Source: a virus (lineage: Duplodnaviria > Caudoviricetes). From it: 64,000 nt of DNA. Below the pieces are notes generated by a model. The model had not been told where the DNA came from, did not search any database, and worked only from the letters and a program-made list of their open reading frames with translations. The position numbers were made by a program, and so were the translations under genes. Position 1 is the stretch's first letter. The number at the start of each line of letters is the position of its first letter. The stretch spans positions 33,105-97,104 of the IMG/VR virus record IMGVR_UViG_2802428829_000001; one strand, given 5' to 3'. Shown here one piece after another: positions 36,694-57,809 of this stretch.

Positions 36694-38379
36694 ATGGCAG
36701 ACGAGGTTCCCGAGGACATCAACCTCCTGGACGACCAGCAGCTCGCCGACGCTCTTGAGGCCGCCCGTACCGAGTTCGCCGGCCTGGCCGCGAAGGACAC
36801 CCTTCCCGACGGCGGCATCGACGCAATGCGCGCCCTCGCCACTCGGGTCGAGGAGATCCGCGCCCTGCAGACCCAGCGGGTGAAGGACGCCCAGGCCGCA
36901 GCAGCCGAGATCGACGCGCTCGCCGCGAAGGTCCGCGGCGACGGCCCCGAGGACGCCGGCAGCACGGACGACAACGCCCCTGTCGGCGGCGACGCCGAGC
37001 CGGCCAGCGCGACGCCGGAGCCGACCGAGCCGGAGCAGCCGCAGCAGGACGTGCACCCCGCGCAGGCCACCGCGAGCATCGCGCCCCGACCGGCCCTCAA
37101 CCTCGCCTCCGTACGCGCCCGGCAGCCCAAGGTGCTGCCCGAGGCGCCGGCGTCGACCATCATCACCGCGGCGGTCGACGTCCCCGGCTACACCCCGGGG
37201 CAGGAGCTGTCGTTCGACAACATCACCGCCGGCCTCATCTCCAGGGCCAACGCCTTGAAGACAGCGAACGGCGGCGTCGGGCAGGTCATCTCCTACCGGC
37301 ACCCGTACCCGCAGGACCTCATCGTCACCGACTCCAGCTCGGCACCGGAGGGCACCACGGTCGCGCTCAACGCCGCGAGCCAGCGCCGCCTCCCGCAGGG
37401 CGACCTCGTCGCCTCCGGCGGCTGGTGCGCCCCCTCGGAGACGATCTACGCGATCACCGACATCGCCTGCCCAGACATGCTGTGGGACGCGCCGGAGATC
37501 CAGCTCGCCCGCGGCGGCCTGCGCTACTACAAGACCCCCAGCCTGGACGTCGGCGCGCTCACGTGGGTGCACACCGAAGCCGACGACATCGCCGGGAACG
37601 AAAAGCCGTGCTTCAAGATCCCCTGCCCGGACCCGGTGGAGGTGAGGTGCGACGCCATCGGCGTGTGCCTCGAATCCGGCATCCTCACCCAGCGGCACTT
37701 CCCCGAGCTGGTGTCGTGGTACCTCCGGAACGCGATGGTGGCGCACGAGATGCGCATCAAGGCGCAGCTCTTCCAGCAGGTCCTGAACAGCGCCACCCCG
37801 GTCGTCATGCCGCCGACCTTCGGAGCGCTGTCCGCAGTGTTCGCCGCGGTGGCGCTGCAGGCCGCGGACATGATCGAACGGCACTCCCTGTGCGAGGGCA
37901 CCGCGCTGGAGGTCGTGTTCCCGTACTGGGCGCGGCAGCTCTTCCTGTCCGACCTGGCGCGCCAGAACGGCGTCAACATCTGCGACCTGGACCCGAACTG
38001 CATCCAGAACACCTTCACCAAGCTCGGTGTCAGCGTGCAGTTCGCGCGCGGCCTGGCGCCGGCGGTGCCCGCCGACATCGGCGGAGCGGACCCGGCCGCG
38101 CAGTGGCCGGCCGAGATCACCTTCGTGATCTATCCGGCCGGCTCGATCCAGATCGGCCGTGGTGAGGAGATCAACCTCGGCGTCATCCACGACTCGGCGA
38201 AGTTCAAGTTCAACGATTTCACGGCGCTGTTCGTGGAGGAGTGCTCCGCGGTCGTTGACCGCTCGCCGGACACCCGCCGCGTGACCGTTCCGGTCTGCCC
38301 GGACGGCGCGACCGGCGCGCAGCTCGAAATGGTGTGCGCGGCCGGCTCCCCGGCCGAGTCGCCCGGCGCGATCAGCTAA
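36694..38379 (+). CDS. major capsid protein (with N-terminal scaffold-like region)
   Basis: Coiled-coil N-terminus; LVASGGWCAPSETIY motif of actinophage capsids. Confidence 0.85.
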   Translation: MADEVPEDINLLDDQQLADALEAARTEFAGLAAKDTLPDGGIDAMRALATRVEEIRALQTQRVKDAQAAAAEIDALAAKVRGDGPEDAGSTDDNAPVGGDAEPASATPEPTEPEQPQQDVHPAQATASIAPRPALNLASVRARQPKVLPEAPASTIITAAVDVPGYTPGQELSFDNITAGLISRANALKTANGGVGQVISYRHPYPQDLIVTDSSSAPEGTTVALNAASQRRLPQGDLVASGGWCAPSETIYAITDIACPDMLWDAPEIQLARGGLRYYKTPSLDVGALTWVHTEADDIAGNEKPCFKIPCPDPVEVRCDAIGVCLESGILTQRHFPELVSWYLRNAMVAHEMRIKAQLFQQVLNSATPVVMPPTFGALSAVFAAVALQAADMIERHSLCEGTALEVVFPYWARQLFLSDLARQNGVNICDLDPNCIQNTFTKLGVSVQFARGLAPAVPADIGGADPAAQWPAEITFVIYPAGSIQIGRGEEINLGVIHDSAKFKFNDFTALFVEECSAVVDRSPDTRRVTVPVCPDGATGAQLEMVCAAGSPAESPGAIS

Positions 38380-38455
38380 CCCCGCCCCCGTGTGCCGGGC
38401 CCGCCACGGGGGCGGGCCCGGCCCTTCCTGTAACCCCCTGTTGGAGGTGGGCCCC

Positions 38456-39331
38456 GTGGCGACCATGCGCAAGGCCGTAGACGCCATCGGTGGCGAGCCG
38501 CTGCCGCACGGCATCCTGTCCGGCTGCGCCGACGTCCGCGACGTCACCGACCCGCACGAGCTGCTGGGCGTCGACTGGCTCGCGCTGGGCTGCTGCCCAG
38601 TGCAGGCCTGGGTCGACCCCTGCCTGTCCGACAGCTCTCCGGGCGACGCCTCCCCGGGAGACACCTCACCCGGGGACGTCTCGCCCGGGGATCCGGCGGA
38701 GAAGGAGTTCTGCCGGCCCACCGTGGAGGCGGCGGACCCGTTCACCGTCTACGCGGGGGTGGAGTGCTCCGCCCCGGGCTGGTCGTACCCCGAGGCCGTG
38801 CAGCACGCTCGTGCCGCCCTCGAACTCGGCGAGCAGCAGGCGGTCGAGGAAGGGTTCATGCGTCAGCACCTCTCCCCGCAGGCCGTCGACCTCACCCCGC
38901 CCGAAGGCCCGCTGAGCCTCGCGCAGGGCCTGGCCGCCCTGGAGGGCTGCCTCGCCGAGTCCTACGGCGGCCGCGGCGTCGTCCACGTCCCGGCCGGCGC
39001 CGCGGCGCTCCTCGGCTGCTGCCAGCTCGCCCACCCCACCCCCGACGGCGGCCTGTTCACCCTCGCCGGGAACTGCCTGGTGATCGGCGCCGGGTACTCC
39101 GCGGTGAACGTCGGCCCTGACGGGCTGCCCGCCGAGCCGGGCACGGCGTGGCTGTACATCACCGGGCCCGTCACCGTCCGCCGCGGGCCGGTCGACATCA
39201 TCCCCGACCCGTCCCGCGCCGCCTCGTCGGTGAACACCCGCACCAACGACCGGCAGGTGCTGGCGGAGCGCACGTACGTCGTCGCCACCACCTGCACCGT
39301 CTGCGCCGTGAAGGTGACTCTGTGCCCGTAG
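38456..39331 (+). CDS. second capsid protein (putative pentamer/decoration protein)
   Basis: Follows the MCP; PFTVYAGVEC..EQQAVE..NDRQVLAERTYVV; SPGD repeat. Confidence 0.65.
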   Translation: MATMRKAVDAIGGEPLPHGILSGCADVRDVTDPHELLGVDWLALGCCPVQAWVDPCLSDSSPGDASPGDTSPGDVSPGDPAEKEFCRPTVEAADPFTVYAGVECSAPGWSYPEAVQHARAALELGEQQAVEEGFMRQHLSPQAVDLTPPEGPLSLAQGLAALEGCLAESYGGRGVVHVPAGAAALLGCCQLAHPTPDGGLFTLAGNCLVIGAGYSAVNVGPDGLPAEPGTAWLYITGPVTVRRGPVDIIPDPSRAASSVNTRTNDRQVLAERTYVVATTCTVCAVKVTLCP

Positions 39332-39918
39332 AGATGATCCACGTGCAGCCCGCCGCGGCCCGGCGGCAGGCGTTCGCCCGGTGGGCGACCCGGCAGCGCC
39401 CGAAGATCCGCACCACTGGCCCCGGCACGTTCGCGGTCCCGGCCGCCCTGTTCACCGCGGCCCCCGAAGCAGTCCTCATCGGTTCCACGGTGGACGGGCA
39501 GCGGTACGTGTCCCCGCAGACGAGCCCCCCGCGGCCGGCGAAAGCACCGACCCGCCGCCGGCCCGGCACCACAAAGCCCTCCCCGAAACGTCCCGCCCGG
39601 GTGTCCCCCCGCCCGGACGCCGGGACGATGACCCCGGCGGGGGTCGAGGGCGCGCCCGCCGGGGTCACCCCGCCTGGTGGCGGACCGGCACGCGGCGACG
39701 GTCCGCCACCAGGTCCCCCCGACTCCGTGTCGGCGCCGACCAGTCCCGCCCCTGGCGCCGACACGGACACCACCCCCGCCACCGCGACCAGCCAGCCGGA
39801 CGACTCCGCCGGCGACGGCGCGGACAGCTGGGATTGCCCCGCCTGCCCCCGCGCGTTCACGACCGCGCGCGGCCGTGCCGCCCACCACCGCCAGGCCCAC
39901 GCCCCCAGGGAGGACTGA
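39322..39918 (+). CDS. Pro-rich protein with C-terminal C2H2 finger
   Basis: CPACPRAFTTARGRAAHHRQAH. Confidence 0.6.
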   Translation: MPVEMIHVQPAAARRQAFARWATRQRPKIRTTGPGTFAVPAALFTAAPEAVLIGSTVDGQRYVSPQTSPPRPAKAPTRRRPGTTKPSPKRPARVSPRPDAGTMTPAGVEGAPAGVTPPGGGPARGDGPPPGPPDSVSAPTSPAPGADTDTTPATATSQPDDSAGDGADSWDCPACPRAFTTARGRAAHHRQAHAPRED

Positions 39919-39921
39919 CCG

Positions 39922-40674
39922 GTGCCGATCGAACCGCTCCCGTGCACCCCCGAAGGCCCTGGCCCGGGTCCCGGGCCGGGGCCCGGCGGCTCGTCGTGCT
40001 GCGCCCCGTCGATCACCTCAACCGCGTTGTGCCGCCCGGACGGGACGACGATCCTCCTCGTCCTGCGCTCCGGATGCGTCTGCGACGGCGCCGACCCCGG
40101 CACGCCCGAGGTAGCAGGGTGGATCGACGCCGGCACCGGCGAGTTCACCGAGGGCCCGGCACCCGGCGATGCCGGCCCATGCTCCGGCTCGGGCAGCGAC
40201 GACTGCGCCACCGTCACCGTCCTCCGCCTCTGCGACCAGACGGACGACTGCACGCCGTTCCTGCGGCATCTCCTCCACGACTGCACCGGCACGGTCACCT
40301 CGTCCGCCGACACCACCGAAGACGGCACCACCCCCTATACCCCAGCCGGCGCCGTCGGGGACTGCGCAGCGTGCACTGACTGCCCGCCCACCCCTATGTG
40401 CGGGCAGCTCCTCGGGCTCTCCGGCCCCGAGACGTGGTCGATGCCCGAAGGCACGGAGTCCCTCACCATCAACGTCGCCTGCGGCCCCGTCACGATCACC
40501 GACTGCGCGGGCAACACGACCGTCGTAGCCGAGTGCGGCACCGGCTTCACCTGGGGCGCCCCGCCCACGCCTGGCTGCGCCCCGCCTGCCCTGTGCATGC
40601 CGTTCACCGTCGACATCCCCGAAGGCGCCGCGGCGTACCTGAACTTCGTCAGCCCCTGCGCGGACGAGTCATGA
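39922..40674 (+). CDS. Cys-rich virion protein sharing a repeat with the next gene
   Basis: 21 Cys in 250 aa; LCD..PFLR..DG.TPYTP.G.VG.C. Confidence 0.75.
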   Translation: MPIEPLPCTPEGPGPGPGPGPGGSSCCAPSITSTALCRPDGTTILLVLRSGCVCDGADPGTPEVAGWIDAGTGEFTEGPAPGDAGPCSGSGSDDCATVTVLRLCDQTDDCTPFLRHLLHDCTGTVTSSADTTEDGTTPYTPAGAVGDCAACTDCPPTPMCGQLLGLSGPETWSMPEGTESLTINVACGPVTITDCAGNTTVVAECGTGFTWGAPPTPGCAPPALCMPFTVDIPEGAAAYLNFVSPCADES

Positions 40675-40734
40675 CGCGCGTGCCCTCTGCCTCCGTCACC
40701 GCCGCCTGAGCGGCCACCAGCAAGGAGACCCACA

Positions 40735-43700
40735 GTGCCTTCAGGCGGGAACTTCAGCTCGTGCAACTGCGGCCCGGACACGGACGCGTGCGCCTCACCG
40801 ACCGAGCCGGTCGCCACCGTCGGACTGTGCCTCGCGGACGGCACCCCGATCGCGGTGACGGTCGTACGGGACTGCGCGGGCACGACCACGTCCGAGGGCT
40901 GGATCAACCTGGCCACCGGCTCCTGGTCGGCCGGGCCGCCGCCGGCCGGAACGCTGGCGTGCGGGGAGTCCCGCTCCATCCAGGTGTCCGGCACCTTCTG
41001 TGACGTCGTCGACGGCGACGTTGTCGGCCTGGTCCTCGTCGAATACTCCTACGCCCCGGACGGCTCCATCGCCCGCGTGCGGCTCGTTGACGCCGTCACC
41101 GGGCAGACGTACGTCCTGCAGGGCGAGGTGACGACCTGCCCGGCCGGGGTGGAGCAGCCTGAGCGGGACCTGCTCCAGCTCTGCGACCTGACCGATGACG
41201 AGTCGGGCATGGTCCTCAGCGAGCCGTTCGTACGGGACTACCAGCGCGACCAGAACGGCGCCATCACCGGGCACACGGACTACACGCTCAACGGCGCCCC
41301 GTACACCCCCACGGGGACGGTCGGCATCTGCCCGGCCCCGGCCGCGGACGAGGACGGGTGCCAGCACTGCGAGACGCTGACCCTCTGCGATGTCGTCACC
41401 GAGGAGGAGTCCCCCGGGCCCGGCGTCGAGGTCCCGTGGGCCCTGGCGGGCGTCGACCCCGATCCGGACTCGCCGGCCGGGCGCGGGTTCCTGTTCCGGC
41501 TCTCCCCGCCGGACGACCCCGGGCAGGTCGCGACGGTCCGCGTCACCTCCGGCACGGTCGCCAACACCACCTGCCCGCCCGGCACGCCCGACGCGCTGGT
41601 GTTCCACAACACCAACGACCTGCGGTTCTCGTTGGACGATACCGCGCAGCAGATGTCGTATCTGCGGGTCGATCTTCAGGACTTCGACACGTTCGAGCCG
41701 GTCCAGATCCACAGCGACAGCCCCGAGCCGACGCGGCTGGGCGGCACCGCGGTCTGGAACCCCGGCCACACCCAGATCGTGCCGACCGAGTCCAACGGGG
41801 TCGGCGAGATGTACTGGGACAGCCCGCCGGCGTCCTTCGGGTACCGGATCTGGAACACCGGCGGCGGCACCTCGTGCAGCCAGCTCAGTTTCGCCGGGGT
41901 CACGCTCGTCTTCCCGGAACCGCCGCCCGGCGAGGGCGTCGCCACCGGGTTCCTGCGCACGGTGTGCCGGGACTGCCAGGGCGCCGTCATCTCCACGACC
42001 GACACCGAGATGGACGGCGTCACGCCGTACACCTCGGCCGGTGAGGTCACCGCCTGCACCACCGGCGCCGGCGCCCCCGAGGGCCCTGCGGATGTGGTGG
42101 ACTGCGACGCTGGCCGCGCCCTGCTCGTCGCTATGTGCAGCACCGACGAGTCCCCGGGTGGCGAGCCGTGCCGCGACACGTCGTCCACGCTGCTGTGCGA
42201 CACCGCGGCGACCGACCTGATCACGGTCTTCGACCCGGTGAACCGGCCGGACTCGGACGGCTGGCAGGTCGTCGCCTTCACGGGTGCGTTCCCCAGCTAC
42301 GGGCCGGAGGCGGCGATGCCGTACCCGGCGCCGTACGGGACGCCCATGGGCTACCCGGCGCTCGGCGCCCGCGTCGACCAGAACGCCGGCCCGACCGGCG
42401 TCCAGTGGCCCGGCTACGACGGCGCACAGATCCGATGGGTCCTCCGCAAGACGTTCACCGCGCCGGAGGACGGCGTTGCCGTCGCCCAGTCCACCGGGTT
42501 CCGGGGAGACGGCGGCGCCCGCGTACGGATCAATGGGGTCGACGCCGGCATGTACGGGCAGTGGAACCAGCCCGCCACCTCCGGCACTGCGCAGATCCCC
42601 GTCACCGCCGGCCCCAACGTCGTGGAGATCGAAGTCCGCGACGTCGGCGGCATCAACAACGTGCTCGGCAGACTCGACATTGCGATGCCGCGCACCGTGC
42701 AGTTCATGCGCCGGCAGGTCACGGACTGCGAGACCGGCGACGTCATCTCCACCACGGACACCACCCTCGACGGTGATCCGTACACGGTCACCGGGGAGGT
42801 CGGGCAGTGTGAGCCGCTCGCGGAGTGCTGCGAGCAGCCTCCCCCAGAGAACCGGGTCGACGTGGAGACGCAGCTCCTGTGCGTTCGGGACCAAGCGAGC
42901 GGCGACATCACCGGGCAGGTCATCGCAGAGCGCCTCTACGACGACCAGAGCGGCGACCTGGCCGAGCAGCGGCTCACCACCCTCACTGGCGCGCCGTTCA
43001 CGCTACCCGTCGGCGTCGAACTCACGAAGTGCCCGGAGCCGGACCGCATCACCGGTCAGGTGTGCTTGGTTGAGTCTGGCAGCAGCGAGTTCCTGACCAA
43101 CGAGGCGAACGCGGCCAGCGGCGTGGACACGGATTGGCAGTGGGCGCCGAACCTGACGGGCCTGTGGTACCCGATGTACCGGGTCGCGCCGAACCCGGTA
43201 TGGACGGCGACGGACACCGCGCCGAACAAGGCGCATTGGGTGAGCCCGCACTCCAACCGGACCGTGTGCCCTGCCGCGGGGGAGACCTCGCCGCAGGTCC
43301 CGGGCACCTGGTACACGCGGGCCTCGTGGAACCTGCCGGTCAACGTGGATCCGGACAGTATCCGTATCGCGGCGACGGTCCTGAACGCCGACAACAAAGT
43401 CGTCCAGTGGCGCCTCAACGATGGGGCGTGGCAGCCGGTAGGGGGCGGCGGCCTCAGCAATCCGGCGTGGACGTTCCCCCCGACCGCCGTGCCCGGAGGC
43501 CGGGCTGGTCAGAACGAGATCGTCGTCCAGATCCTGGAGACGCAGCCCGCCGTCTCATGCCCGTCGCCGAATGAGGCCGGGATGATCCTGCACGTCCTCG
43601 CCACTTACGACTACGAGCCGCGGGTGTGGACGCAGGTCATCGAGGACGGCCGGGTCTACTACCTGGACCAGGACGGCCAGCGGCAGGACAGCATCCCGGA

Positions 43701-45933
43701 CGGCTACCGGCAAGTGGTGTGCGGCGGGAATGGCGGTGGCTGCTGCCCACCCGAGGAGCGCGTAGACGTCGAGTCCGACGTTATGTGCATCCAAGACGCG
43801 GCCGGCGACATCGTGCAGCAGGTCGTCGTCGAGCGCGTCTACGACGACCAGACCGGCGAGCGCACGCTGCAGCGGCTCCTCGCCCCGACCACCGGCGCCC
43901 CCGTGGAACTCCCCGAGGGCGCCACGCTCGTCGTCTGCAACGAGCCGGAGTGCCCGGTGGCGTTCTCCACGGAGTGCGTGGGCGCGATGGAGCGCACGGA
44001 GGCGTCGTACGACAACACGAGCTTGATCGGCGGGCTGCCGGGCTTGTGTGGCAGCGTCCAGGGTCCGGACGGTCAGTTTCCGTGCACGGCCCCGGACGGT
44101 ACGCCGTTCACGATCGTCAGTTGGATCGTGAACGGCGAGGAGGTGATGGGCGAGGGCGGCGGCCGGCAGTTCAACGGTGGCGCCTGCGGCCCCGGCACCG
44201 ACGCTGCTCTGGGCATGCACCGGAGCTGGGCCGAGGCGCTCACCAATTTGGACCCGACCGGCGCGACGTGGGAGGTGAAGTCGGCCGACTCCTGCGCCTG
44301 GTTCGTCGGCTCGGTCGGCGGCACCGACACGGCATACGGGCAGATGACGATCGTCGGCACCAGCTACGGCGGCGTACCCGAGTCCCGTTGGGTCCTCGGC
44401 CCGGCACAGCAGTGCGAAGAGACCCAGTACACGAAGGTCTACAGCCAGGAGTGCGACGGCACGGTCTCCGTATCGTGGCTGACCCCTCAGGGCGTGCCGA
44501 CGGACGCGCCGACCGGTGACCTGGTGCCCTGCGGCACCGGGTGCGGCAAGAGCGGCGGAACGGGTCTGGACGTCGAGGTACTCACCCTGTGCGATGTCAA
44601 CGACGACGAGTCGGGCTCCGTCGCCTCGGTGTCGTTTCTGCGGCACCTGGTCTACGGCCCGGACGGGCAGGTCGCGACCGCCTACGACACCGACCTGGCC
44701 GGTCTGGCGCCCTACACCCCGACCGGCACCGTCGGCGCCTGTACGCCTGCCACCGATGAGTGCCGAGACTCCTCCACGCTCCTTGTGTGCGACCTGCCAA
44801 CTGACGGCGCACCTGATCCGGCGGTCACGGACACGGACCCGACCGCGTACTTCAGCAGCCCGCCGACCACCCCCGTGCCCGGCGGCGTGCCGGACCTGTG
44901 GGCTGGCGGCGTTGTCACCATCGGACCGGATCCGGCGCCGGGCCCGCACCCCGCAGGCGTAGTGCGGACCGTGGCAGCGACCGTGCAGGCCACCCGCCCC
45001 GCGTGCGACACCGGCACTGCGCACGTGAGGGCGTCCGTCGAGGTCGCGCAGCTCGGCCCGACAGACGGCTGTGGCCCCGTCGGCTGGATGTTCCTCTTCA
45101 ACGGCACGACACAGCTCGTCCACGACGCGCCGCCCAACAACACCCCCTCGGGGTGGACCGGCACCCTGACGGTAGAGACGGACGTCCCGGCCGCTGACCT
45201 CGCCGCAGGTCAGATTGCAGTGGTCCTCGGCTTCGACACCTACGACTCGTGCGACGGCACCACCGCGTCGCAGACCTCCTGGGAGCTGTCCAGCTTCACC
45301 TCCGAGACCACGTATGACCAGGCGGGCTGCGCCCCGCAGGTACTGGCGAACGTCGTCACCAACTGCGAGACCGGAGAGGTCCAGTCGGTTACGTACGCCA
45401 CGCTGGACGGGGCGCCGTACACGCCCGCCGGGACCATCGGGATGTGTCAGCCCCTGGGGGCCGAGCAGCCGGTTACCGTGCTGGAGGCGTGCCGCTGCGA
45501 CGACACAGACGGCGACGGCATCGCCGACACCAGCTACGTCGAACTCGTCGGGGTGGCCGCGGACGGCACGCTGACGAGCCTGGGCGCCCACACGCCTGAC
45601 CTCAGCGCCCCGTACGAGCCCGTTGCCCCCGTCGAATGCGCCACGGACGGAGCGCCGGCGCTGGTGGCCACCGTGCAGGCGCACCGGGTGGAAGTCCCGG
45701 CGGGTGGCTCGTGGACCGCGAACGGGATACCGCTGCTGCACGCCGTCACCCTCACCGCGTGGGGCGCCGACGCGCAGATCACCACCGAGGACGGCACCAG
45801 CACCCTCCACGACGGCGAGTCGGCGTCGTGGTCGATCAGCCGCGACGGCGACGCGTTCCTGACGGGGCCGCTGTCGGTGACCGCCGCCGCGGGGACCGTG
45901 ACCGTCACCTACACCACAGGGGGAGCCGCGTGA
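40735..45933 (+). CDS. 1732-aa modular Cys-rich virion fibre/adhesin
   Basis: AAGGAG RBS; about 11 copies of a ~50-aa Cys-bounded module with large inserted beta-rich domains. Confidence 0.8.
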   Translation: MPSGGNFSSCNCGPDTDACASPTEPVATVGLCLADGTPIAVTVVRDCAGTTTSEGWINLATGSWSAGPPPAGTLACGESRSIQVSGTFCDVVDGDVVGLVLVEYSYAPDGSIARVRLVDAVTGQTYVLQGEVTTCPAGVEQPERDLLQLCDLTDDESGMVLSEPFVRDYQRDQNGAITGHTDYTLNGAPYTPTGTVGICPAPAADEDGCQHCETLTLCDVVTEEESPGPGVEVPWALAGVDPDPDSPAGRGFLFRLSPPDDPGQVATVRVTSGTVANTTCPPGTPDALVFHNTNDLRFSLDDTAQQMSYLRVDLQDFDTFEPVQIHSDSPEPTRLGGTAVWNPGHTQIVPTESNGVGEMYWDSPPASFGYRIWNTGGGTSCSQLSFAGVTLVFPEPPPGEGVATGFLRTVCRDCQGAVISTTDTEMDGVTPYTSAGEVTACTTGAGAPEGPADVVDCDAGRALLVAMCSTDESPGGEPCRDTSSTLLCDTAATDLITVFDPVNRPDSDGWQVVAFTGAFPSYGPEAAMPYPAPYGTPMGYPALGARVDQNAGPTGVQWPGYDGAQIRWVLRKTFTAPEDGVAVAQSTGFRGDGGARVRINGVDAGMYGQWNQPATSGTAQIPVTAGPNVVEIEVRDVGGINNVLGRLDIAMPRTVQFMRRQVTDCETGDVISTTDTTLDGDPYTVTGEVGQCEPLAECCEQPPPENRVDVETQLLCVRDQASGDITGQVIAERLYDDQSGDLAEQRLTTLTGAPFTLPVGVELTKCPEPDRITGQVCLVESGSSEFLTNEANAASGVDTDWQWAPNLTGLWYPMYRVAPNPVWTATDTAPNKAHWVSPHSNRTVCPAAGETSPQVPGTWYTRASWNLPVNVDPDSIRIAATVLNADNKVVQWRLNDGAWQPVGGGGLSNPAWTFPPTAVPGGRAGQNEIVVQILETQPAVSCPSPNEAGMILHVLATYDYEPRVWTQVIEDGRVYYLDQDGQRQDSIPDGYRQVVCGGNGGGCCPPEERVDVESDVMCIQDAAGDIVQQVVVERVYDDQTGERTLQRLLAPTTGAPVELPEGATLVVCNEPECPVAFSTECVGAMERTEASYDNTSLIGGLPGLCGSVQGPDGQFPCTAPDGTPFTIVSWIVNGEEVMGEGGGRQFNGGACGPGTDAALGMHRSWAEALTNLDPTGATWEVKSADSCAWFVGSVGGTDTAYGQMTIVGTSYGGVPESRWVLGPAQQCEETQYTKVYSQECDGTVSVSWLTPQGVPTDAPTGDLVPCGTGCGKSGGTGLDVEVLTLCDVNDDESGSVASVSFLRHLVYGPDGQVATAYDTDLAGLAPYTPTGTVGACTPATDECRDSSTLLVCDLPTDGAPDPAVTDTDPTAYFSSPPTTPVPGGVPDLWAGGVVTIGPDPAPGPHPAGVVRTVAATVQATRPACDTGTAHVRASVEVAQLGPTDGCGPVGWMFLFNGTTQLVHDAPPNNTPSGWTGTLTVETDVPAADLAAGQIAVVLGFDTYDSCDGTTASQTSWELSSFTSETTYDQAGCAPQVLANVVTNCETGEVQSVTYATLDGAPYTPAGTIGMCQPLGAEQPVTVLEACRCDDTDGDGIADTSYVELVGVAADGTLTSLGAHTPDLSAPYEPVAPVECATDGAPALVATVQAHRVEVPAGGSWTANGIPLLHAVTLTAWGADAQITTEDGTSTLHDGESASWSISRDGDAFLTGPLSVTAAAGTVTVTYTTGGAA

Positions 45934-46526
45934 CCCACCCGGAGCCGGCGGCGGCCGCGGACGATGGCGTGGATGCCTACCAGCGCCGCTACCTCGACCA
46001 CCAGGCGCGCAAGCGCGAGGTGCTGATCGAGATCATGCGGGAGCGGCACTCGGACCGCATGTACGACGCCCGCCAAGTCGAGGACGGCGTGCGCGCCCAG
46101 GTGCGTGAGGCGATCGGGCTGGTCCCGTCGAGCTGCAACCGCCGCGGCGTACGCGCGGTGGAGGTCGACGGTCGCGACGAACTCGCCCTCCTCGGTGGGC
46201 TCCTGGTCGGCGGCGTCGGGTGGATCCACCGCGCGCCGTGGGTTCTGCTGCTCTTCGCCGACCCGGTGGCGTACAAGGCCGGCCGTGAGGTCGAGTTCAT
46301 GCCCTTCTTGGACGCCGGGTGCGTCATACAGCAGGTGATGCTCCGGGCCACCAGCCTCGGGCTCGCCACCGCGTACGCCAACCCGAACGTGCGAGAGACC
46401 AACCGCGCGCACTTCAGCGCCACGTTCGGTCAGGGCATCTTCTGCGGCGCGTTGGCGATCGGCCACCCGCACCCCGATTCCCTCGACCGGGCCCACCACG
46501 AGCAGCGCACGCGGGCCGCTCTGTGA
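45930..46526 (+). CDS. nitroreductase-family (FMN) protein
   Basis: ERHSDRMY, PSSCNR, LDAGCVIQQVMLRATSLGLAT, AIGHP. Confidence 0.85.
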   Translation: MTHPEPAAAADDGVDAYQRRYLDHQARKREVLIEIMRERHSDRMYDARQVEDGVRAQVREAIGLVPSSCNRRGVRAVEVDGRDELALLGGLLVGGVGWIHRAPWVLLLFADPVAYKAGREVEFMPFLDAGCVIQQVMLRATSLGLATAYANPNVRETNRAHFSATFGQGIFCGALAIGHPHPDSLDRAHHEQRTRAAL

Positions 46527-47401
46527 CCGGCCGGCCGCGGGTCTTCGCCGTCGCCGGCTGGCGGTACGAGCCTGCGTGGCTCGTCGACGAGCTGCGCGAC
46601 AACTTGTCATGGGTCGACGAGGTGGTCATCGTCGACGACCGTGCCCGTACGGACGAGCTGTGGGTGCATGAGGGGGAGTACCGGCTGATGCAGCGCCGCG
46701 CCCTGGAGGCCGCCGGCATCCGCCCGTGGGACCTCGTCCTCGTCACCTCCCCGGACGAGCGGTGGGGGCGCCACGCCGGCCGTATCCTCCGCGGCCTGGC
46801 CGCCGCCTACCCCCGCCGGAAGCGGATCTACGAGTTCCCGCTGCGGGAGATGTGGACCCCGACCCGCTACCGGACCGACGGCATGTGGGGCAGCAAGTGG
46901 CGGCCGAGGATGTTCCCCTACCTGCCGGACCAGAAGTTCACCCGGCGGCGGATCCAGACCCCGCCCACCCCCACCTCAGGGCGGTACCAGCGCATCCGCG
47001 TCCCCAAGGTCCCGATCTTCCACCTGGAGAACATCGCGCACTCCTCCCGTGTGGAGCGCGCCATCGTGTACGAGGCGATGTCGCTGGGCTCCCGCGAGCG
47101 GGCCGCGGACAGTCCGTTCTGGCGTCGGCACGACCCGACCGGCCGCTACATCCGCGCCTCCGGCTACGCCTACCTCGCCGACCCCCGCGGAATGCGCCTG
47201 GCCCCCGTCGAACGCGGAGCGTTCACCCCGCCCGTCGAGCGCCCCTACCTCTTCCGCGTCCCTGACCGGCTCCTCGAAGCGGAGTGCGGGCGCACCCGCG
47301 GCGAGCTGACCCAGTGGCTACGCGACGCCCTCGCCGAGCCGCTGCCGGTCCCCGGCAGGCCGGTGCGCCGCCGACGGCTTGCCCGGGGCGGGCGCGGCTA
47401 G
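46523..47401 (+). CDS. GT-A fold (GT2-like) glycosyltransferase
   Basis: VDEVVIVDDR, VLVTSPDERW (DxDE-like), PIFHLE. Confidence 0.65.
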   Translation: MTGRPRVFAVAGWRYEPAWLVDELRDNLSWVDEVVIVDDRARTDELWVHEGEYRLMQRRALEAAGIRPWDLVLVTSPDERWGRHAGRILRGLAAAYPRRKRIYEFPLREMWTPTRYRTDGMWGSKWRPRMFPYLPDQKFTRRRIQTPPTPTSGRYQRIRVPKVPIFHLENIAHSSRVERAIVYEAMSLGSRERAADSPFWRRHDPTGRYIRASGYAYLADPRGMRLAPVERGAFTPPVERPYLFRVPDRLLEAECGRTRGELTQWLRDALAEPLPVPGRPVRRRRLARGGRG

Positions 47402-47416: not shown

Positions 47417-47471
47417 GCTGGCGGTAGGCCGAGCGGAACACGCCTAACGGCGCCGCTGGTTCTGGGCCGGG
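47417..47471 (+). promoter_or_regulatory. two tandem late-leader motifs
   Basis: GCTGGCGGTAGGCCGAG (47417) and GCTGGTTCTGGGCCGGG (47455) after TAGACT. Confidence 0.7.
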
Positions 47472-47497: not shown

Positions 47498-48199
47498 ATG
47501 CCGGCCCCTCTCATTTCTAATGCGGCCACGGTCCGCGTTACTCGCGTTGACGGCTGCGGACGTCCTGTGTGTGGCGAGGATTCTTCGTTCGTCACCGAGT
47601 GTTTCGCCAGCGTGCAAATGGAAGCGAACATCGAAGAGGGCGAGGACATTTCGTTCATCGCCGCCAACGGGCGCCAGTGCGGGTTCAAGAAGGGCTGCCC
47701 GTCGCTCAACGGCTACGATTTGACGTTCACGTTCTTCCAGGCTAGCCCCGAACTGCTGGAGATCATGACCGGATCGCCGGTGTATTTCGACTACAACGGC
47801 GACCCGATCGGGTTCGATAGCTGCTCCATTTCCTGCCGCTCCGGATTCGCACTCGAAGTGTGGGCCGATGTCCTAGGCGAGGACGTGTGCCCGGAGGAGG
47901 ACACCGGCGAAGGCGCGTGGGTGTATTTCATCCTGCCGTGGGTGACGAACGGCATCATCGGTGACCTGGAGCTGGCGAACGAGGCCGTGAACTTGGAGTT
48001 GACGGGCGCCACGCGCGCAGGCGGCCGGTGGGGCGTTGGCCCGTACGATGTCGTCTCCCAGGACCCGGCTGGCACCCCGGGGCCGATGCTGACCCCCCTC
48101 GACGGCACCTGCCACCGCCGCATGTTCATCACGACGATCGCCCCGCCGGAGCCCAGCACCACGTACGTGCCCGTGCTCTGCGACGCCTCCCCGTCGTGA
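47498..48199 (+). CDS. major tail protein
   Basis: RVTRVDGCGRPV..ANGRQC..FALEVW..YFILPW..WGVGPYDV. Confidence 0.8.
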   Translation: MPAPLISNAATVRVTRVDGCGRPVCGEDSSFVTECFASVQMEANIEEGEDISFIAANGRQCGFKKGCPSLNGYDLTFTFFQASPELLEIMTGSPVYFDYNGDPIGFDSCSISCRSGFALEVWADVLGEDVCPEEDTGEGAWVYFILPWVTNGIIGDLELANEAVNLELTGATRAGGRWGVGPYDVVSQDPAGTPGPMLTPLDGTCHRRMFITTIAPPEPSTTYVPVLCDASPS

Positions 48200-48921
48200 T
48201 GGCGCTCCCAGACATCGTCGTCCCCGTCCGCGAGGGGGCGGCGAACCAACAGCTCCGGTACGCGCTGCGCTCGTGGGTGGCGAACGTGCCGCACCGGCGG
48301 GTGTGGGTGGTGGGCTACAAACCCGCGTGGCTGACCGGCGTGGAGCACATCCGCACCCACCAGGCAGGCAAGACGAAGTACCAGAACACCACGCAGGCTG
48401 TTCGTGTGGCGTGCGAGCATCCGGAAGTGAGTTCCAAATTCCTGCTGTGCAATGACGACTTCTTCGTCATGCGCCCGCAGCCGGCCGCATTTCCGGTGTT
48501 TCACCGCGGCCCGGTGTCGCTGGTCGAGAAGTACTACGCGGGTCGCGGGCACGGGAAGTACCTGAAAGGGCTGCGCGAGACACGGGACTTGTTGGTCAAG
48601 CTCGGGCATGAGAATCCGGCGTCGTACGAGCTGCATGTGCCTCTTCCCGTGCAGAAGGCGGGGATGCTGCGGGCCCTTGAGATGGGTAAGGGCCTGGAAG
48701 TGGTGCACAAGCGCACCCTCTACGGCTGCCTCTCCCGGCTCGGCGGCACACGCATGCGGGACGTGAAGGTCTTGAACCGCGCGCCGCGTGACTTCACCAC
48801 CCAGGCGTTCCTGTCGACCATGCCGGACTCCTTCACGAACGGCGCCGTGGGCCGGTACATCCGGGCCGCGTTTCGGGAGCCGTGCCGGTACGAGACGCGC
48901 ACCCGCGTACGGAGCCGCTGA
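48199..48921 (+). CDS. Stealth-like sugar-1-phosphate transferase
   Basis: DIVVP..QLRYALRS..VWVVG.KPAWL..FLLCNDDFF resembles Stealth CR1/CR2; YELHVPLP. Confidence 0.7.
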   Translation: MALPDIVVPVREGAANQQLRYALRSWVANVPHRRVWVVGYKPAWLTGVEHIRTHQAGKTKYQNTTQAVRVACEHPEVSSKFLLCNDDFFVMRPQPAAFPVFHRGPVSLVEKYYAGRGHGKYLKGLRETRDLLVKLGHENPASYELHVPLPVQKAGMLRALEMGKGLEVVHKRTLYGCLSRLGGTRMRDVKVLNRAPRDFTTQAFLSTMPDSFTNGAVGRYIRAAFREPCRYETRTRVRSR

Positions 48922-49727
48922 TGACGCGGCCGGGGCTGTGTGAACCGTGGCCGGCGGACACGTCCTGCTGCGATCTGCCGGACGACGTCGACCCGGCGGA
49001 CGTCGAGCGGTGGAGGCTCGTCGCCTCAACAGTCCTGTGGCGGCTGTCGGGCATGCGGTGGGGCCCGTCGTGCCCGGTGACGGTCCGGCCCTGCGGGCGG
49101 TCGTGCGTGGAGCAGCAGGCCAGCCTGTGGCCGGGAGTGCTCCAGTCCGGCGGCCGGGTGCCGTACATGGACGCCGGCGGCGTGTGGCGCAACGCGGTGT
49201 GCGGCTGCAAGACGGCGTCCTGCTCGTGCACCGAGCTGTGCGAACTGCGCCTGGACGGCCCGGTCTACGACGTCGTCGAAGCGGTGCAGGACGGTCGGGT
49301 CCTGCCGCCCGAGGCATACCGCGTCGACGCCCCCAACACCCTCGTACGCCTCGACGGCGACTGCTGGCCGGCGTGCCAGGACCTGACGGTGCCGCCGACG
49401 GAAGAGGACACGGCGGCGGTCACCTACCGCACCGGGCTCCAGCTCGACGAAGCGGCGAAGGCGGCAGTCGGGGCGCTGCTGTGCCACTACGTACGCGACT
49501 GCGGGTCGGGCTGCGGCTGCCGCATCCCCAAGACGGCGACGCGGGTGGTCCGCCAGGGCCTTGAGATCGAGACGCCCGGCCCGCTCCAGCTCTACGAAGG
49601 CGGGCTGACCGGCGTGCCCATGGCCGACGCCTGGCTGCTGGCCGTGAACCCGTACGGGCAGAGGAGCCCGTCGCGGGTGTGGAGTCCGGACCTTCGGCGG
49701 CCGAGGGTGAGCCCGCAATGGCCCTGA
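48921..49727 (+). CDS. head-to-tail adaptor
   Basis: LWRLSG..CPVTVRPC..WPACQDL..RQG..TG...D.WL..VNP. Confidence 0.75.
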   Translation: MTRPGLCEPWPADTSCCDLPDDVDPADVERWRLVASTVLWRLSGMRWGPSCPVTVRPCGRSCVEQQASLWPGVLQSGGRVPYMDAGGVWRNAVCGCKTASCSCTELCELRLDGPVYDVVEAVQDGRVLPPEAYRVDAPNTLVRLDGDCWPACQDLTVPPTEEDTAAVTYRTGLQLDEAAKAAVGALLCHYVRDCGSGCGCRIPKTATRVVRQGLEIETPGPLQLYEGGLTGVPMADAWLLAVNPYGQRSPSRVWSPDLRRPRVSPQWP

Positions 49728-50308
49728 AACCGACGACCGTTCAGTTCTACGCGGACCAGATCCTGAACTGCGTGTGCACCGCGCTCGCCGCGGCCGCGGA
49801 AGACTTCGAGGATGCGGCCGGCTGCCCCTGCCGGGCATGCGTCGTGCCGGGGGCACCGGCGTGGGACGACTGCGACGACCCGTGCGGCAGCGTCCCGGCT
49901 GGCGGGCAGCTCACCGTCAACCTCGCCCGCATGTACGCCACGACGAGCTTCCCGGCAGAGTCCCGGCCCGTCCTCGGCATCCGCGGCTGCGCCCCGCCGG
50001 CGACGCTGGCCGGCGAGTACGTCGTCACCCTCCTGCGCTGCGCCCCGTCCCCGTCTCCGGGCGGCTGCCCGCCCGGGTGTGACGAGCTGGAGGCTGTCGC
50101 GCGGGCGGTGCACGCGGACGTGGCGGTCATCTACAACGCGCTCGTGTGCTGCCTGCCGACGATCGGCGGCCGGCGGCGGGGGCCGAAGTTCGAACTTGGG
50201 CCGTCGAGGATCGTCGGCCCGGAGGGCGGCTGTGTCGGGGTCGAGCAGCGGGTGACGGTCGCGCTCCCCGGCTGCGGGACGTGCCCAGGGGAGGACAGCC
50301 CGAGCTGA
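49718..50308 (+). CDS. tail terminator/completion protein (putative)
   Basis: Position; GQLTV, LLRCAP, GPEGGCVG. Confidence 0.65.
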   Translation: MALKPTTVQFYADQILNCVCTALAAAAEDFEDAAGCPCRACVVPGAPAWDDCDDPCGSVPAGGQLTVNLARMYATTSFPAESRPVLGIRGCAPPATLAGEYVVTLLRCAPSPSPGGCPPGCDELEAVARAVHADVAVIYNALVCCLPTIGGRRRGPKFELGPSRIVGPEGGCVGVEQRVTVALPGCGTCPGEDSPS

Positions 50309-50458: not shown

Positions 50459-50464
50459 GGGCGC

Positions 50465-50753: not shown

Positions 50754-50834
50754 GGCCAGGATTTTGCCCGCTATGGTCTGATCAACTCCGGTGTTTTCCC
50801 TCCACCGTGACCTGCGTCTCTGAGGAGTCCCCCT

Positions 50835-51188: not shown

Positions 51189-51253
51189 TTGGAAGTCCCT
51201 ACACACGTCTGGATTCCCAGATAGCTCGGCGTCCTCAGCTCGTCCGGTGTCTG

Positions 51254-52465: not shown

Positions 52466-52520
52466 CCGTCCACGGTGCCGTACCGCAGGGGAACGGACAG
52501 TTACCCTGGCCCGTGGCGTC

Positions 52521-52537
52521 GCTGGCTGTGGGCCGGA
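52521..52537 (+). promoter_or_regulatory. late-leader motif
   Basis: GCTGGCTGTGGGCCGGA after TACCCT. Confidence 0.65.
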
Positions 52538-52563
52538 CGTGGCCCACCTCGTCGGGAGTACCG

Positions 52564-52995
52564 ATGCGCCGTTCCTTCGCCCTCGCCACCGAGCCGCACA
52601 CCGCTGACATCGGCGGCACCGAGATCCTGTTCCATCCCGAGATCCCCGCGGACGAGTTCCTCGACGCCTACGAGCTGGTGCGGGAGGCGTCGCAGGCGGC
52701 GCGGTCGCCGGAGACGGTGACGGCCGATCAACTGCGCGACGCGAACCGCGCGGTCCGCACGTTCCTCTGCGGGCTGATGCTGCCGGAGTCGGCCGACGTG
52801 TTCGAGGAGATGAAGCTTCCCAGCCGGATCTACGCGGAGCTTCTGGAGTTCGTCTTGGAGCTGTACGGCGGCGGGGCGTCGGGGGAGCGCCCTACTGGGT
52901 CGTCCAGCGGCTCTGTGCCGCGGTCGCCGAGGGCTGGGACACCTGGGAGGGGAGCCTCGCCCTCCAAGGCGTCTCGATCCGCGCGTGGTCGCTGA
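52564..52995 (+). CDS. tail assembly chaperone (G)
   Basis: GGGAG RBS; precedes the tape measure gene. Confidence 0.8.
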   Translation: MRRSFALATEPHTADIGGTEILFHPEIPADEFLDAYELVREASQAARSPETVTADQLRDANRAVRTFLCGLMLPESADVFEEMKLPSRIYAELLEFVLELYGGGASGERPTGSSSGSVPRSPRAGTPGRGASPSKASRSARGR

Positions 52996-53225
52996 GGACG
53001 CTGTTGTCCGCGGCTGAGCAGGCGATGATGCAGGCAGCGAAGGACGACGCCGAGCGGGAGCGGCAGCGCGTCCGGCTGTACGCGCCGCCGCCGGCCGTAG
53101 TTCGCGGCCGGCGTTCCGCCCGTGGGGGGCCTGGTGGCGCGCCGGTCGGGGTGAGCCGCGGCGACGCCCAGGCGCTCATGGCGCGGCTGGCGGCCGAGGA
53201 CACCCGGTACGGCGGCAGCACCTAG
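52564..53225 (+). CDS. tail assembly chaperone GT via -1 frameshift near 52881-52893
   Basis: The -1 frame is open from G GGG GAG CGC CCT to 53225 (PYWVVQRL..RLYAPP). Confidence 0.7.
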
Positions 53226-53317
53226 GCCGGCGCCCCCGGGAGGTGAGGTGCGTGGGCGCCTGGTGGGGCGCATCGCAGGGGTGCGTCCTGGTCTGCCGGA
53301 TACCCTGAGTACGAGCT

Positions 53318-53334
53318 GCTGGTGCTAGGCCGAG
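53318..53334 (+). promoter_or_regulatory. late-leader motif
   Basis: GCTGGTGCTAGGCCGAG after TACCCT. Confidence 0.7.
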
Positions 53335-53356
53335 CCCCGCGTACGTCCGCGAGGCG

Positions 53357-56329: not shown

Positions 56330-56333
56330 CCCC

Positions 56334-57809
56334 GTGATCCCCGACTACCTCCTCCTCGGCGAAACCGAGATCATCAACACCGCGCGCCTGCGGGCGTATC
56401 TGGAGACCGTGGGGTCCCCGCTGGACTCGGTCACCCCGTGCGGCTGCGAAACGCTGGAGGCCGAGCACGTCGGGGACGAGCCCTACACCACGCCGGACGC
56501 CGACCCCGCACCGTGGTACGACCCCGACATCCCCGAGTCCGGAGATTTCGTGGGGTTCCTGCCGCTGGAGGTCGAGGGGTTCGACGACCACCCCGTGACG
56601 CGAGAAGTCACCACCAGTATCACGGGCGGAGCGGCGTTCGCGCGGGCGCGCACCCAGCCGCGGACGATCACCGTCACCGGTCTGCTGCTCGGGGTGACGT
56701 GCTGCGCGGTGGCGTACGGGCTGCGGTGGCTGTCGCAGGCGTTGGGCGGCTGCACCGGATCGTCGTGCGGCGGGGACTGCCTGACCGGCTACCTGTGCTG
56801 CCCGGACGACGACGAGGCCGCCGGCCCGGACGGCTTCGATCGGCACCGCCGCACGATGCGTCGCGTCGCGATGACGTCGAGCCCGACGATCACCGCCCGT
56901 ACGGGCAACGGCTGCTCCGGCGTCGGCGGGTGCTCCGTCGGCGCCGACATCCTCACCGTCGAGTTCGTGCTCACGGCGGGGGTGCCGTGGGCGTGGACCG
57001 ACCCGGTGCCGGTCCTCAACGTCGACGTGCCCTCGGACGACGGGGAGTGCATCACCTGGTGCATCCACGGGGGCGACGCGCCACCGCCGCCGGTATGCGT
57101 CGACCTGCCGCCGGGCGGCGTCGACCCCGAGTGCGCCCCGGGCGGCGTGCTGGTGCCCGTCGACGGCGACGGGGACGTCTCGCCCGGTGAGGAGTCCCCG
57201 GGTGAGGGCTGCGTGCAGTGGCCGGTGCTCGACGTCGTAACGGACCCGTGCGTCCGCTGCCGCCTGGCGCCGTGCCCGGACCCGGAAGCCGCCTGCCAGG
57301 ACCCCACCTGCCGTACGCCCACCCCGCCGGAGCCGCCGCCGCCGACCACGTGCTTCTGCACGCAGCTCGCGGTAAACGAGGACTTCTACGACCTCGATCT
57401 CACCTCGGAGCCGCAGTGGTTCGCGAGCGTGCCGATGATCGAGGTCCACGCCGGCAGCACGGATCTGCGGCGGGTCACGATCACCTTCTACGAGCGCACG
57501 GGCGAGCACGAGGGCCTGCCGTGCTCCGACGTCGCCTACGACCAACGGTGCGCCCCGGCCGCGGTGTTCGAGGCGTCGTTCGTTCCGGCCGGCGGGGTCC
57601 TCACCTTCGACGGGCAGGTGGGGCGGGCGCTCGTCGAGTGCCGCGGCGACTGCGAGACCAGCCAGGACGCGCACGGCGCCGACGGCGGGCCGATCACGTG
57701 GCCGGACCTGGACTGCGACCGGTACTGCGTCAGCATCGCCGCGGACGCCATCGTCCCCCCGGCGGACGACGCGCGCATCGTCGTGTCGGTCACCGGCCGC
57801 GAGTACTGA
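56334..57809 (+). CDS. minor tail (distal tail-like) protein, Cys-rich
   Basis: Follows the TMP; APWYDPD.PES; 29 Cys. Confidence 0.75.
   Translation: MIPDYLLLGETEIINTARLRAYLETVGSPLDSVTPCGCETLEAEHVGDEPYTTPDADPAPWYDPDIPESGDFVGFLPLEVEGFDDHPVTREVTTSITGGAAFARARTQPRTITVTGLLLGVTCCAVAYGLRWLSQALGGCTGSSCGGDCLTGYLCCPDDDEAAGPDGFDRHRRTMRRVAMTSSPTITARTGNGCSGVGGCSVGADILTVEFVLTAGVPWAWTDPVPVLNVDVPSDDGECITWCIHGGDAPPPPVCVDLPPGGVDPECAPGGVLVPVDGDGDVSPGEESPGEGCVQWPVLDVVTDPCVRCRLAPCPDPEAACQDPTCRTPTPPEPPPPTTCFCTQLAVNEDFYDLDLTSEPQWFASVPMIEVHAGSTDLRRVTITFYERTGEHEGLPCSDVAYDQRCAPAAVFEASFVPAGGVLTFDGQVGRALVECRGDCETSQDAHGADGGPITWPDLDCDRYCVSIAADAIVPPADDARIVVSVTGREY

Follow-up and report, generated by a model that had tools for sequence, protein, structure and literature searches.

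We analysed a stretch of phage DNA 64,000 nucleotides long (the window, bases 33105-97104 of a single 97,104-bp IMG/VR virus record, GC content 71%) and found that its virion proteins carry short acidic Ser-Pro-Gly (SPG) tags or end in Ser, and that among related phages these features accompany a compact Stealth-family enzyme whose gene immediately follows that of the major tail protein. We consider it probable that the enzyme and the tags belong to a system for modifying the virion surface, expressed late and located in the cytoplasm, made up of a Stealth-like core, the Ser tags and a swappable cassette of further enzymes. The virion module lies on the + strand from 33 to 60 kb; it encodes a protease/MuF fusion, the major capsid protein (MCP), a second capsid protein, a small protein, a Cys-rich protein and a fibre, followed by a nitroreductase, a GT-A transferase, the major tail (tube) protein, the Stealth-like enzyme, a head-tail adaptor and a phrog_810 (neck) protein, and at the 3' end by chaperones, the tape measure and a phrog_838 minor tail protein. 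The closest isolate is the temperate Streptomyces phage TurkishDelight (MCP identity 72%), and the Woodruffvirus phages BayC and Mischief19 are more remote relatives. A preliminary description of this DNA had proposed that Stealth-like, GT2-like (glycosyltransferase family 2) and nitroreductase enzymes together glycosylate Ser in (D/E)xSP(G/S) tags over the whole particle. This interpretation is supported in part: the enzymes, their coupling to structural genes and their co-distribution with the tags hold, but the fixed set of three enzymes and the SPG motif as the main feature do not.

On translation, every tag sequence quoted in that description was found in its place. The MCP ends in the tail SPAESPGAIS (38347-38376), which lies beyond its last Cys, and gp17, its homologue in TurkishDelight, ends in AAAESPGSTS. 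Four DxSPG units occupy one loop of the second capsid protein (DSSPGDASPGDTSPGDVSPG at 38630-38689), the fibre carries EESPG (41404-41418) and DESPG (42145-42159), and the minor tail protein carries DVSPGEESPG (57174-57203). Three more proteins are tagged at their C-termini, namely the Cys-rich protein (CADES, 40657-40671), the major tail protein (LCDASPS, 48182-48196) and the neck protein (CPGEDSPS, 50291-50305). The form (D/E)xSP(G/S) given earlier to these tags describes real sites but does not fit the MCP, whose ESPG has no spacer residue; the consensus over relatives is (G/P)(D/E)E-S-P-G-(E/D/A). Counting non-overlapping [DE].?SP[GS] sites in 10 virion proteins (5205 aa), we found 11, against a mean of 0.90 and a maximum of 6 when each protein was shuffled (5000 rounds, of which none reached 11 or more), and the sites fall in 6 of the 10 proteins where shuffling predicts 0.83. 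The other approximately 60 open reading frames (ORFs) of the 97-kb genome contain one site. The tags are real and far above chance. Their Ser codons include TCT, TCC, TCA, TCG and AGC, the last being used in the SPS tails, and the array in the capsid loop is a 15-nt tandem repeat of 3.6 copies whose units differ at synonymous positions in the Ser, Pro and Gly codons. Because these codons vary between copies, the conservation of the tag is at the protein level, and a DNA-level origin (for example a CCCGGG site) was ruled out by the same variation and by the AGC Ser codons of the SPS tails.

To compare relatives with and without the enzyme, we used 100 loci around homologues of the tail protein, with about 20 kb captured per locus and genes scored by tblastn. 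The Stealth-like gene lies directly 3' of the tail gene in 41 loci, all with a tail-protein identity of at least 58%, and is absent from the rest; the median distance from tail to adaptor gene is 731 nt in positive loci and 298 nt in the 47 non-redundant negative loci. With duplicates removed and Ser scored in the last two residues, the tube protein has a terminal Ser in 36/38 Stealth-positive versus 4/47 Stealth-negative loci, the neck protein in 34/38 versus 5/22 (with an acidic residue among the last six in 38/38 versus 5/22), and the MCP in 6/12 versus 2/37. Three controls, the C-termini of the adaptor, the phrog_838 protein and the second capsid protein, do not shift between the groups; the adaptor ends ...TTWP in both (terminal Ser 0/38 positive versus 10/46 negative). 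Within the loop of the second capsid protein, one to four SPG units are present in all 14 complete positive copies and in none of the 19 aligned negative copies. The density of [DE].?SPG is 2.90 per 10,000 aa in positive loci and 0.48 in negative loci, five control motifs differ at most two-fold, [KR].?SPG is rarer, and acidic residues stand at positions -2, -1 and +1 of SPG in 56, 52 and 47% of positive cases versus 10, 7 and 10% of negative cases. Fibre homologues contribute 25 of the 70 counted tags, typically (D/E)ESPGE, homologues of the Cys-rich protein end in PCx(2-4)[DE]xS in 10 of 23 Stealth-positive loci, and the minor tail protein is tagged too in L024 (the closest relative of the window phage) and in L004/L025. 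What is conserved best is not the SPG tag but a Ser at the C-terminus, a short way past a conserved Cys. The preliminary description had named the persistence of tags in relatives without the enzymes as the result that would speak against it, and since the Stealth-less relatives lack both tags and terminal Ser, that outcome did not occur.

The association recurs in a phylogenetically separate lineage. A scan of IMG/VR with the GT-A family found loci L109-L111, which are 31% (MCP) and 39% (tube protein) identical to the window and have the gene order MCP, second capsid, Cys protein, nitroreductase, GT-A, small Cys protein, tube, Stealth, adaptor and neck. In a tree of tail proteins from which the last 15 residues had been cut, a branch with 100% support separates these loci from the main group, and they stand beside the Stealth-less loci L020 and L021; the starred branches of the tree force at least two changes of Stealth state. 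Tags are present in this second lineage, all three enzymes being found in L109/L110: the MCP ends in ...CATGTSPSES, the tube protein in ...CGCQPMPDYSLGDVS and the neck protein in ...CPGVS, and the small Cys protein contains VESPGDVSPG. The tube protein of the Stealth-less L021 ends in ...CGCQPLTL.

These contrasts bear on the simplest alternative, in which nothing is modified and the tags are clade-specific acidic flexible linkers combined with C-terminal drift (serving, for instance, the solubility or assembly of Cys-rich proteins) that merely happen to have the same history as the Stealth-like gene. Disordered segments of actinobacterial proteins from high-GC genomes commonly contain Ser, Pro, Gly, Asp and Glu, slippage can spread repeats, and the independent contrasts are few. 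The distribution itself holds several points that weigh against modification of the tags. Phylogenetic INDEPENDENCE matters here, for the positive loci are mostly one group and naive Fisher values therefore overstate the evidence; with only two to three independent pairs, an independent-pairs test cannot reach significance; and since the main positive group may be one clade, another clade-specific gene or the temperate lifestyle could be the true correlate. The basal clade members L044 and L045 have the enzyme and no terminal Ser, and 14 of the 38 positive loci have no [DE].?SP[GS] site in the 20 kb captured, partly because capsid genes fall outside the locus. A third contrast of loci with and without the enzyme was sought around the L120 head protein, and only near-identical relatives turned up. 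On the other side, the motif is specific, with permuted and substituted control motifs not enriched; the same five-residue unit occurs in seven different proteins with synonymous codon variation; the three control C-termini do not shift; and the tags reappear in the second lineage together with the enzymes. We regard an absence of modification as distinctly unlikely.

The identity of the Stealth-like protein was established with profile and fold searches, which both this assignment and that of the GT2-like protein needed, because the match of the former to Stealth_CR2 is below threshold and the latter has no Pfam match. With a profile of 74 family members (the family, phrog_7999, comprises 2621 representative clusters), the only matches in the PDB were GNPTAB (7s6n, 7.9e-9) and CpsY (8j2n, 4.7e-8). 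The AlphaFold2 (AF2) model of the protein (pLDDT 96, pTM 0.92) retrieved in Foldseek only CpsY or GNPTAB at ranks 1-13 (E 2e-10 to 5e-6, CpsY best), ahead of retaining GT-A enzymes (GT24, GT8 and GT6). In the profile alignment R20, N85-D86-D87 and H146 correspond to Arg-322, the NDD motif and the general base His-956 of GNPTAB, which have catalytic roles (PMC11418123). The segment LRYALRS (residues 19-25) and the NDD at 85-87 align with NEELRYSLRS and LNDD of GNPTAB, and H146 lies within ELHVP, opposite the AHMPH motif; L19, R24, D87 and P148 are invariant in the 74 members, and R20, S25, D86 and H146 are conserved in at least 90%. A single-sequence phmmer search of the PDB returned noise (best match coronavirus PLpro, E about 0.2), and the protein has no NCBIfam match. 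The Stealth identity proposed in the preliminary description is thus borne out by profile and fold matches and by the retained Arg, NDD and His positions, and its suggested check against Stealth_CR2 gave a mixed answer, with a score below the Pfam gathering cut-off but Stealth structures leading the profile search. From these similarities we describe the protein as a putative UDP-hexose:acceptor hexose-1-phosphate transferase. Among phages 50 records match the gene, all 40 matches listed being annotated as hypothetical, and more than 400 homologues are found in Streptomyces genomes as prophage genes.

The two other enzymes were also correctly recognised beforehand. The AF2 model of the GT2-like protein has a GT-A fold (pLDDT 91), SunS or ThuS occupy Foldseek ranks 1-6 (E 3e-5 to 1.6e-4, TM about 0.42, identity 10-12%), and its nearest Atlas cluster is 'Glycosyl transferase family 2' (score 0.97). 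It has no Pfam (including PF00535) or NCBIfam match, phmmer against the PDB returned nothing, and a PDB profile search with the family gave only designed armadillo repeats, which we judged spurious. Among 24 homologues, P77-D78-E79-R80 and D32 are invariant and D38 and D39 nearly so, the acidic residues among them being candidates for a catalytic DxD-type motif. The nitroreductase-family protein matches PF00881 above its gathering score (E 8e-15, 55.9 bits versus a cut-off of 23.5); no NCBIfam subfamily reaches its cut-off, the best being Acg-like (23.8 versus 199). Its nearest Atlas clusters are viral nitroreductases, 476 homologues were found, and the subgroup to which it belongs is largely viral. 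A tblastn search with the nitroreductase and GT-A genes found no match in 50,697 GenBank phage records.

The three genes do not form a fixed set, because only the Stealth-like gene is present clade-wide (the 41 loci). Within the main clade, the nitroreductase and GT-A pair is found only in the window phage and L024; in 14 loci one or two GT4 domains fill this slot instead, as in TurkishDelight, whose gp20 is a tandem GT4, and other loci have nothing recognisable there. Three Stealth-bearing provirus records, one of them rated 100% complete, have no match to PF00535, PF00534, PF13692 or the GT-A family, and they retain the tags of the MCP, capsid loop, fibre, tube and neck proteins. As these proviruses are still tagged, the Stealth-like enzyme is the best candidate for the tag-directed step. 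On this distribution it is the conserved core, and the nitroreductase and GT-A pair or the GT4 genes are swappable accessories.

The same distribution bears on a second explanation, in which the chemistry would centre on Cys: the SunS/ThuS-like transferase would S-glycosylate Cys, or a sugar-phosphate on Ser would act as leaving group, giving dehydroalanine and then thioether cross-links with nearby Cys that lock the particle, with the nitroreductase-fold enzyme in redox tailoring. In structure, the GT-A enzyme comes closest to S-glycosyltransferases, whose targets are Cys and Ser in peptides. A Cys is close to almost every tag, standing 2-14 residues before every tagged C-terminus and beside most internal tags (CLSDSSPG, MCSTDESPGGEPC, ESPGEGC), and the virion proteins are extremely Cys-rich. 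However, the GT-A and nitroreductase genes are missing from most tagged phages, no cyclase or lyase was found, and at a Cys content of 3-5% chance would account for part of this proximity. The C-terminal Cys is also equally conserved in relatives that have neither the enzymes nor the Ser, which means that Cys does not follow the distribution of the enzymes, and we think Cys-linked chemistry very unlikely.

Cysteines are a general property of this group of phages. The outer virion proteins contain 12-59 Cys each (29 in the 491-aa minor tail protein), and a Cys stands no more than about 14 residues from the C-terminus of the MCP, tube and neck proteins, whether or not a relative has the enzymes (L001-L103). 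This richness suggests a particle locked by disulfides.

The enzyme genes lie inside the structural operon, as the preliminary description stated. Stop/start overlaps couple them translationally to virion genes. GTGA overlaps place the nitroreductase start on the fibre stop codon and the GT-A start on the nitroreductase stop codon, the ATG of the Stealth-like gene lies on the TGA of the tail gene, and its own TGA lies on the ATG of the adaptor gene. One leader motif (GCTGGTTnTGGGCCGGG-like) stands ahead of the MCP (36640-36665), major tail (where it reads GCTGGTTCTGGGCCGGG) and tape-measure (53300-53330) genes; it was recognised by reading the 90 nt before each of these genes and was missed by a generic direct-repeat search. 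The motif is probably a late promoter or regulatory site. Given the overlapping codons and this motif, all three enzymes should be made with the late structural proteins.

A third explanation holds that the enzymes modify an envelope glycopolymer of the host (for lysogenic conversion, receptor masking or progeny release) or the phage DNA, and that the tags are an unrelated feature of the clade. Characterised Stealth proteins build phosphodiester polymers of capsule or exopolysaccharide or modify glycans (PMC10668966, PMC11418123). The many Streptomyces prophage homologues and the integrase of TurkishDelight speak for this explanation; by contrast, the 31-33 kb read of the Woodruffvirus phages BayC and Mischief19 have no annotated integrase. 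In Gaia and OneUp a Stealth-family homologue stands among DNA-metabolism genes (DNA methyltransferase, primase/helicase, endonuclease). On the other hand, the overlaps put all three genes inside late structural operons, the Stealth-like protein, read by eye, has no obvious signal peptide or hydrophobic segment, and in at least four unrelated lineages of phages the same enzymes adjoin an MCP, protease or tube gene; the explanation also leaves the distribution of the tags in two lineages unaccounted for. We regard a host or DNA target as unlikely in the window phage, and the Stealth-like family as a whole may have several targets.

The unrelated phages differ widely in base composition and gene order. 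In L113 (GC 0.42) the Stealth, nitroreductase, HNH endonuclease and GT-A genes lie within 3.3 kb; in L114/L115 (GC 0.40) the nitroreductase and GT-A genes overlap inside a glycan island two small ORFs past the MCP gene; and in L116 (GC 0.51) the GT-A gene is followed by the nitroreductase gene, these two genes being adjacent throughout L109-L116. L118 (GC 0.66) has the order TerL, portal, protease, glycosyltransferase, GT-A, Stealth, and L120 (GC 0.67) has portal, protease, Stealth, major head protein (ending ...VEIEESA), connector, glycosyltransferase, GT-A. The recurrence of the enzymes beside capsid or tube genes in unrelated phages supports a role in virion modification. The island of L115 (L115:7916-15709, about 8 kb) encodes three GT2 enzymes, the nitroreductase and GT-A pair, two epimerase/dehydratases and a DegT aminotransferase, and it seems that this phage produces a modified nucleotide sugar of its own. 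A 274-aa ORF 3' of the GT-A gene in L115 was considered as a hidden Stealth homologue and rejected (hhalign probability 0.7%).

Under modification of the virion surface, which we favour, the Stealth-like enzyme, encoded directly after the major tail gene, would be produced alongside the structural proteins and would probably transfer a sugar from UDP-hexose, most likely as hexose-1-phosphate, to the hydroxyl of an exposed Ser. One type of acceptor would be a C-terminal tail extending 2-10 residues past a conserved Cys and ending in (acidic)-x-Ser, as in the tube, neck, capsid and Cys-rich proteins; the other would be the internal unit (D/E)-E-S-P-G-(D/E), carried by loops of the second capsid, fibre and distal tail proteins in copy numbers that would rise and fall through the 15-nt repeats. 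The cassette just upstream of the tail gene would then probably extend or diversify the glycan, by means of the nitroreductase-family protein and the SunS/ThuS-like GT-A transferase here, and of one or two GT4 domains, or nothing, in relatives. In a more specific form, which we offer tentatively and hold to be possible though doubtful, a minimal viral Stealth enzyme would phosphoglycosylate protein Ser directly, placing sugar-1-phosphate on the (D/E)ESPG(D/E) loops and on the C-terminal acidic-x-Ser, and so giving an anionic coat, teichoic-acid-like or of sugar-phosphate, that swappable transferase cassettes diversify.

To the points already given against modification of the tags must be added those that concern the enzyme. 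The match to Stealth_CR2 (PF11380; E 7e-6, 26.6 bits) is under the gathering cut-off of 39.4, and the Pfam models CR1, CR3 and CR4 gave no match at E <= 0.01. The genomic setting of the Gaia and OneUp homologues belongs here too, as do the cluster K mycobacteriophages, whose Stealth homologue lies near the terminase and which have no ESPG tags; in one of them, Fionnbharth (homologue gp6), the MCP ends in ...DAGSGS, which is uninformative without a Stealth-less cluster K comparison. Characterised Stealth enzymes transfer sugar-phosphate onto a sugar hydroxyl and not onto protein (PMC11418123, PMC10668966). What the analysis shows is the families and folds of the enzymes, their conserved catalytic positions, the coupling of the genes, the enrichment of the tags and their occurrence with the enzyme in two separate lineages; Ser as the acceptor, direct action of the Stealth-like enzyme on protein, the phosphodiester linkage, the donor sugar and the part played by the nitroreductase are inferred.

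The features of the module are collected in the table below.

Features of the virion module, with positions in the window
Feature	Position	Strand	Basis
Major capsid protein (MCP)	36694..38379	+	phrog_777 major head protein, E 2.5e-164
Second capsid protein	38462..39331	+	phrog_779, E 3e-74
Cys-rich virion-associated protein	39922..40674	+	phrog_18824, match in N-terminal part
Cys-rich fibre, 1732 aa	40735..45933	+	
Nitroreductase-family flavoenzyme-like protein	45930..46526	+	PF00881
GT-A-fold glycosyltransferase (GT2-like)	46523..47401	+	AF2 fold and Atlas neighbours
Late-leader motif	47455..47471	+	ahead of major tail gene
Major tail (tube) protein	47498..48199	+	phrog_792 major tail protein, E 1.7e-92
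Compact Stealth-family enzyme, 240 aa	48199..48921	+	phrog_7999, E 1e-82
Head-tail adaptor, untagged internal control	48921..49727	+	phrog_783, E 6e-78
Cys-rich neck protein, tail-terminator position	49718..50308	+	phrog_810, a family of unknown function
Cys-rich minor tail protein, directly 3' of tape measure (distal-tail position)	56334..57809	+	phrog_838

Some of these names need qualification. The start codon of the second capsid gene is uncertain (38390 or 38462), and the name of its product, taken over from the preliminary description, rests on phrog_779 and one homologue annotated 'major capsid pentamer protein', by which it is a putative pentamer-type protein. The positions of the 'tail terminator' (phrog_810) and the 'distal tail protein' (phrog_838) agree with that description, but both PHROGs are of unknown function and the names are positional only; gp29, the TurkishDelight homologue of the latter protein, is annotated 'minor tail protein'. 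In TurkishDelight the second capsid, tube, Stealth-like and neck proteins are gp18, gp21, gp22 and gp24. The N-terminal part of the Cys-rich virion-associated protein falls in the same PHROG family as fibre-type proteins. A Pfam search of the fibre gave no domain, and the MCP, second capsid and tube proteins have no solved homologue.

Several other genes were observed in and around the module. An unlisted gene (39331-39918, +) starts 2 nt after the stop codon of the second capsid gene; about 75 N-terminal residues of its product resemble TurkishDelight gp19 and are followed by a Pro-rich low-complexity stretch and a C-terminal C2H2-like motif (CPACP...HHRQAH), with no Pfam match. Inside the tail operon, a lower-GC gene on the opposite strand (51254-52465, -) encodes a 403-aa pentapeptide-repeat protein (PF13576, E 4.5e-11) and looks like a moron-like insert between the neck genes and the chaperone genes. 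Outside the window, the start of the record (L107:1-8883, genome bases 1-8883) encodes a Laminin_G_3 lectin-like protein, open at its start, and then a 2305-aa RHS-repeat protein with PT-HINT and AHH nuclease toxin domains, which by its domains appears to be polymorphic-toxin cargo in the phage genome. Also outside the window, a radical-SAM gene adjoins a thymidylate-kinase-like/AAA gene (L108:10880-12672, genome 27879-29671, - strand), and the two may be a nucleotide-modifying or defence pair. Among the relatives, one strain carries the same phage type twice, on plasmid unnamed2 of Streptomyces sp. NBC_01590 (L013, NZ_CP109332.1, 102 kb) and on the chromosome (L006); in both copies the tail protein is 76% identical to the query, and the scores of the other genes match. 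Members of the clade may persist as phage-plasmids.

The analysis yields a testable rule: where a compact Stealth-family gene stands in a structural operon, the outer virion proteins are predicted to bear short Ser tags. If the favoured reading is confirmed, phage protein modification would gain a new enzyme class, possibly with a phosphodiester linkage, the role of phrog_7999 would be explained, and a five-residue tag and a small soluble enzyme would become available for decorating proteins or phage particles. Direct phosphoglycosylation of Ser, if true, would make this the first Stealth enzyme directed at protein and would for the first time place sequon-directed phosphoglycosylation outside the eukaryotes. 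Beside the tail gene there is one fixed site at which glycan cassettes are exchanged, as expected under diversifying selection on the surface.

Virion glycosylation of a few mycobacteriophages blunts antibody recognition, and the enzymes and acceptor rules of such modification are poorly defined. Proteins of Dictyostelium and Leishmania carry sugar-1-phosphate on Ser in short repetitive Ser motifs; this is the chemistry of the more specific form of the favoured reading, but in eukaryotic microbes it is a process of the secretory pathway, and we know of no demonstrated bacterial or phage counterpart. SunS and ThuS (GT2; PDB 7msn, 7msp, 7msk), the best fold matches of the GT-A transferase, are soluble enzymes of the GT-A type, which attach sugars to Cys or Ser where these lie in short, exposed stretches of peptide. 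The resemblance is distant (TM about 0.4), there are no genes for a glycocin precursor or thiol-disulfide partners, and the substrates here would be large virion proteins.

Human and zebrafish GNPTAB and CpsY of M. tuberculosis share with the phage protein a GT-A-like fold and the LRYxLRS, NDD and CR3 His positions. Unlike them, the phage protein has no regulatory domains or membrane anchor in its 240 residues, and its proposed acceptor is protein Ser rather than a sugar; the phage proteins form a large family of their own, set apart from GNPTAB and CpsY. A precedent in function comes from actinobacteriophages in which phage-encoded transferases attach glycans to capsid and tail-tube proteins (Freeman 2023, as reported in PMC12363180, PMC11600133, PMC11256854 and PMC13313380). 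According to these reports, the transferases of Che8, Corndog and Myrna are proposed to O-glycosylate capsid and tail-tube subunits, with variable enzyme sets and likely a glycan coat over the whole particle, as we propose here, and the enzymes they describe are conventional glycosyltransferases and an O-methyltransferase encoded away from the structural genes. In the phages studied here, in contrast, a Stealth-family enzyme is wedged between the tube and adaptor genes. What is new is the class of Stealth-like enzyme, its fixed position in the structural operon and a short acceptor-like tag that tracks the enzyme.

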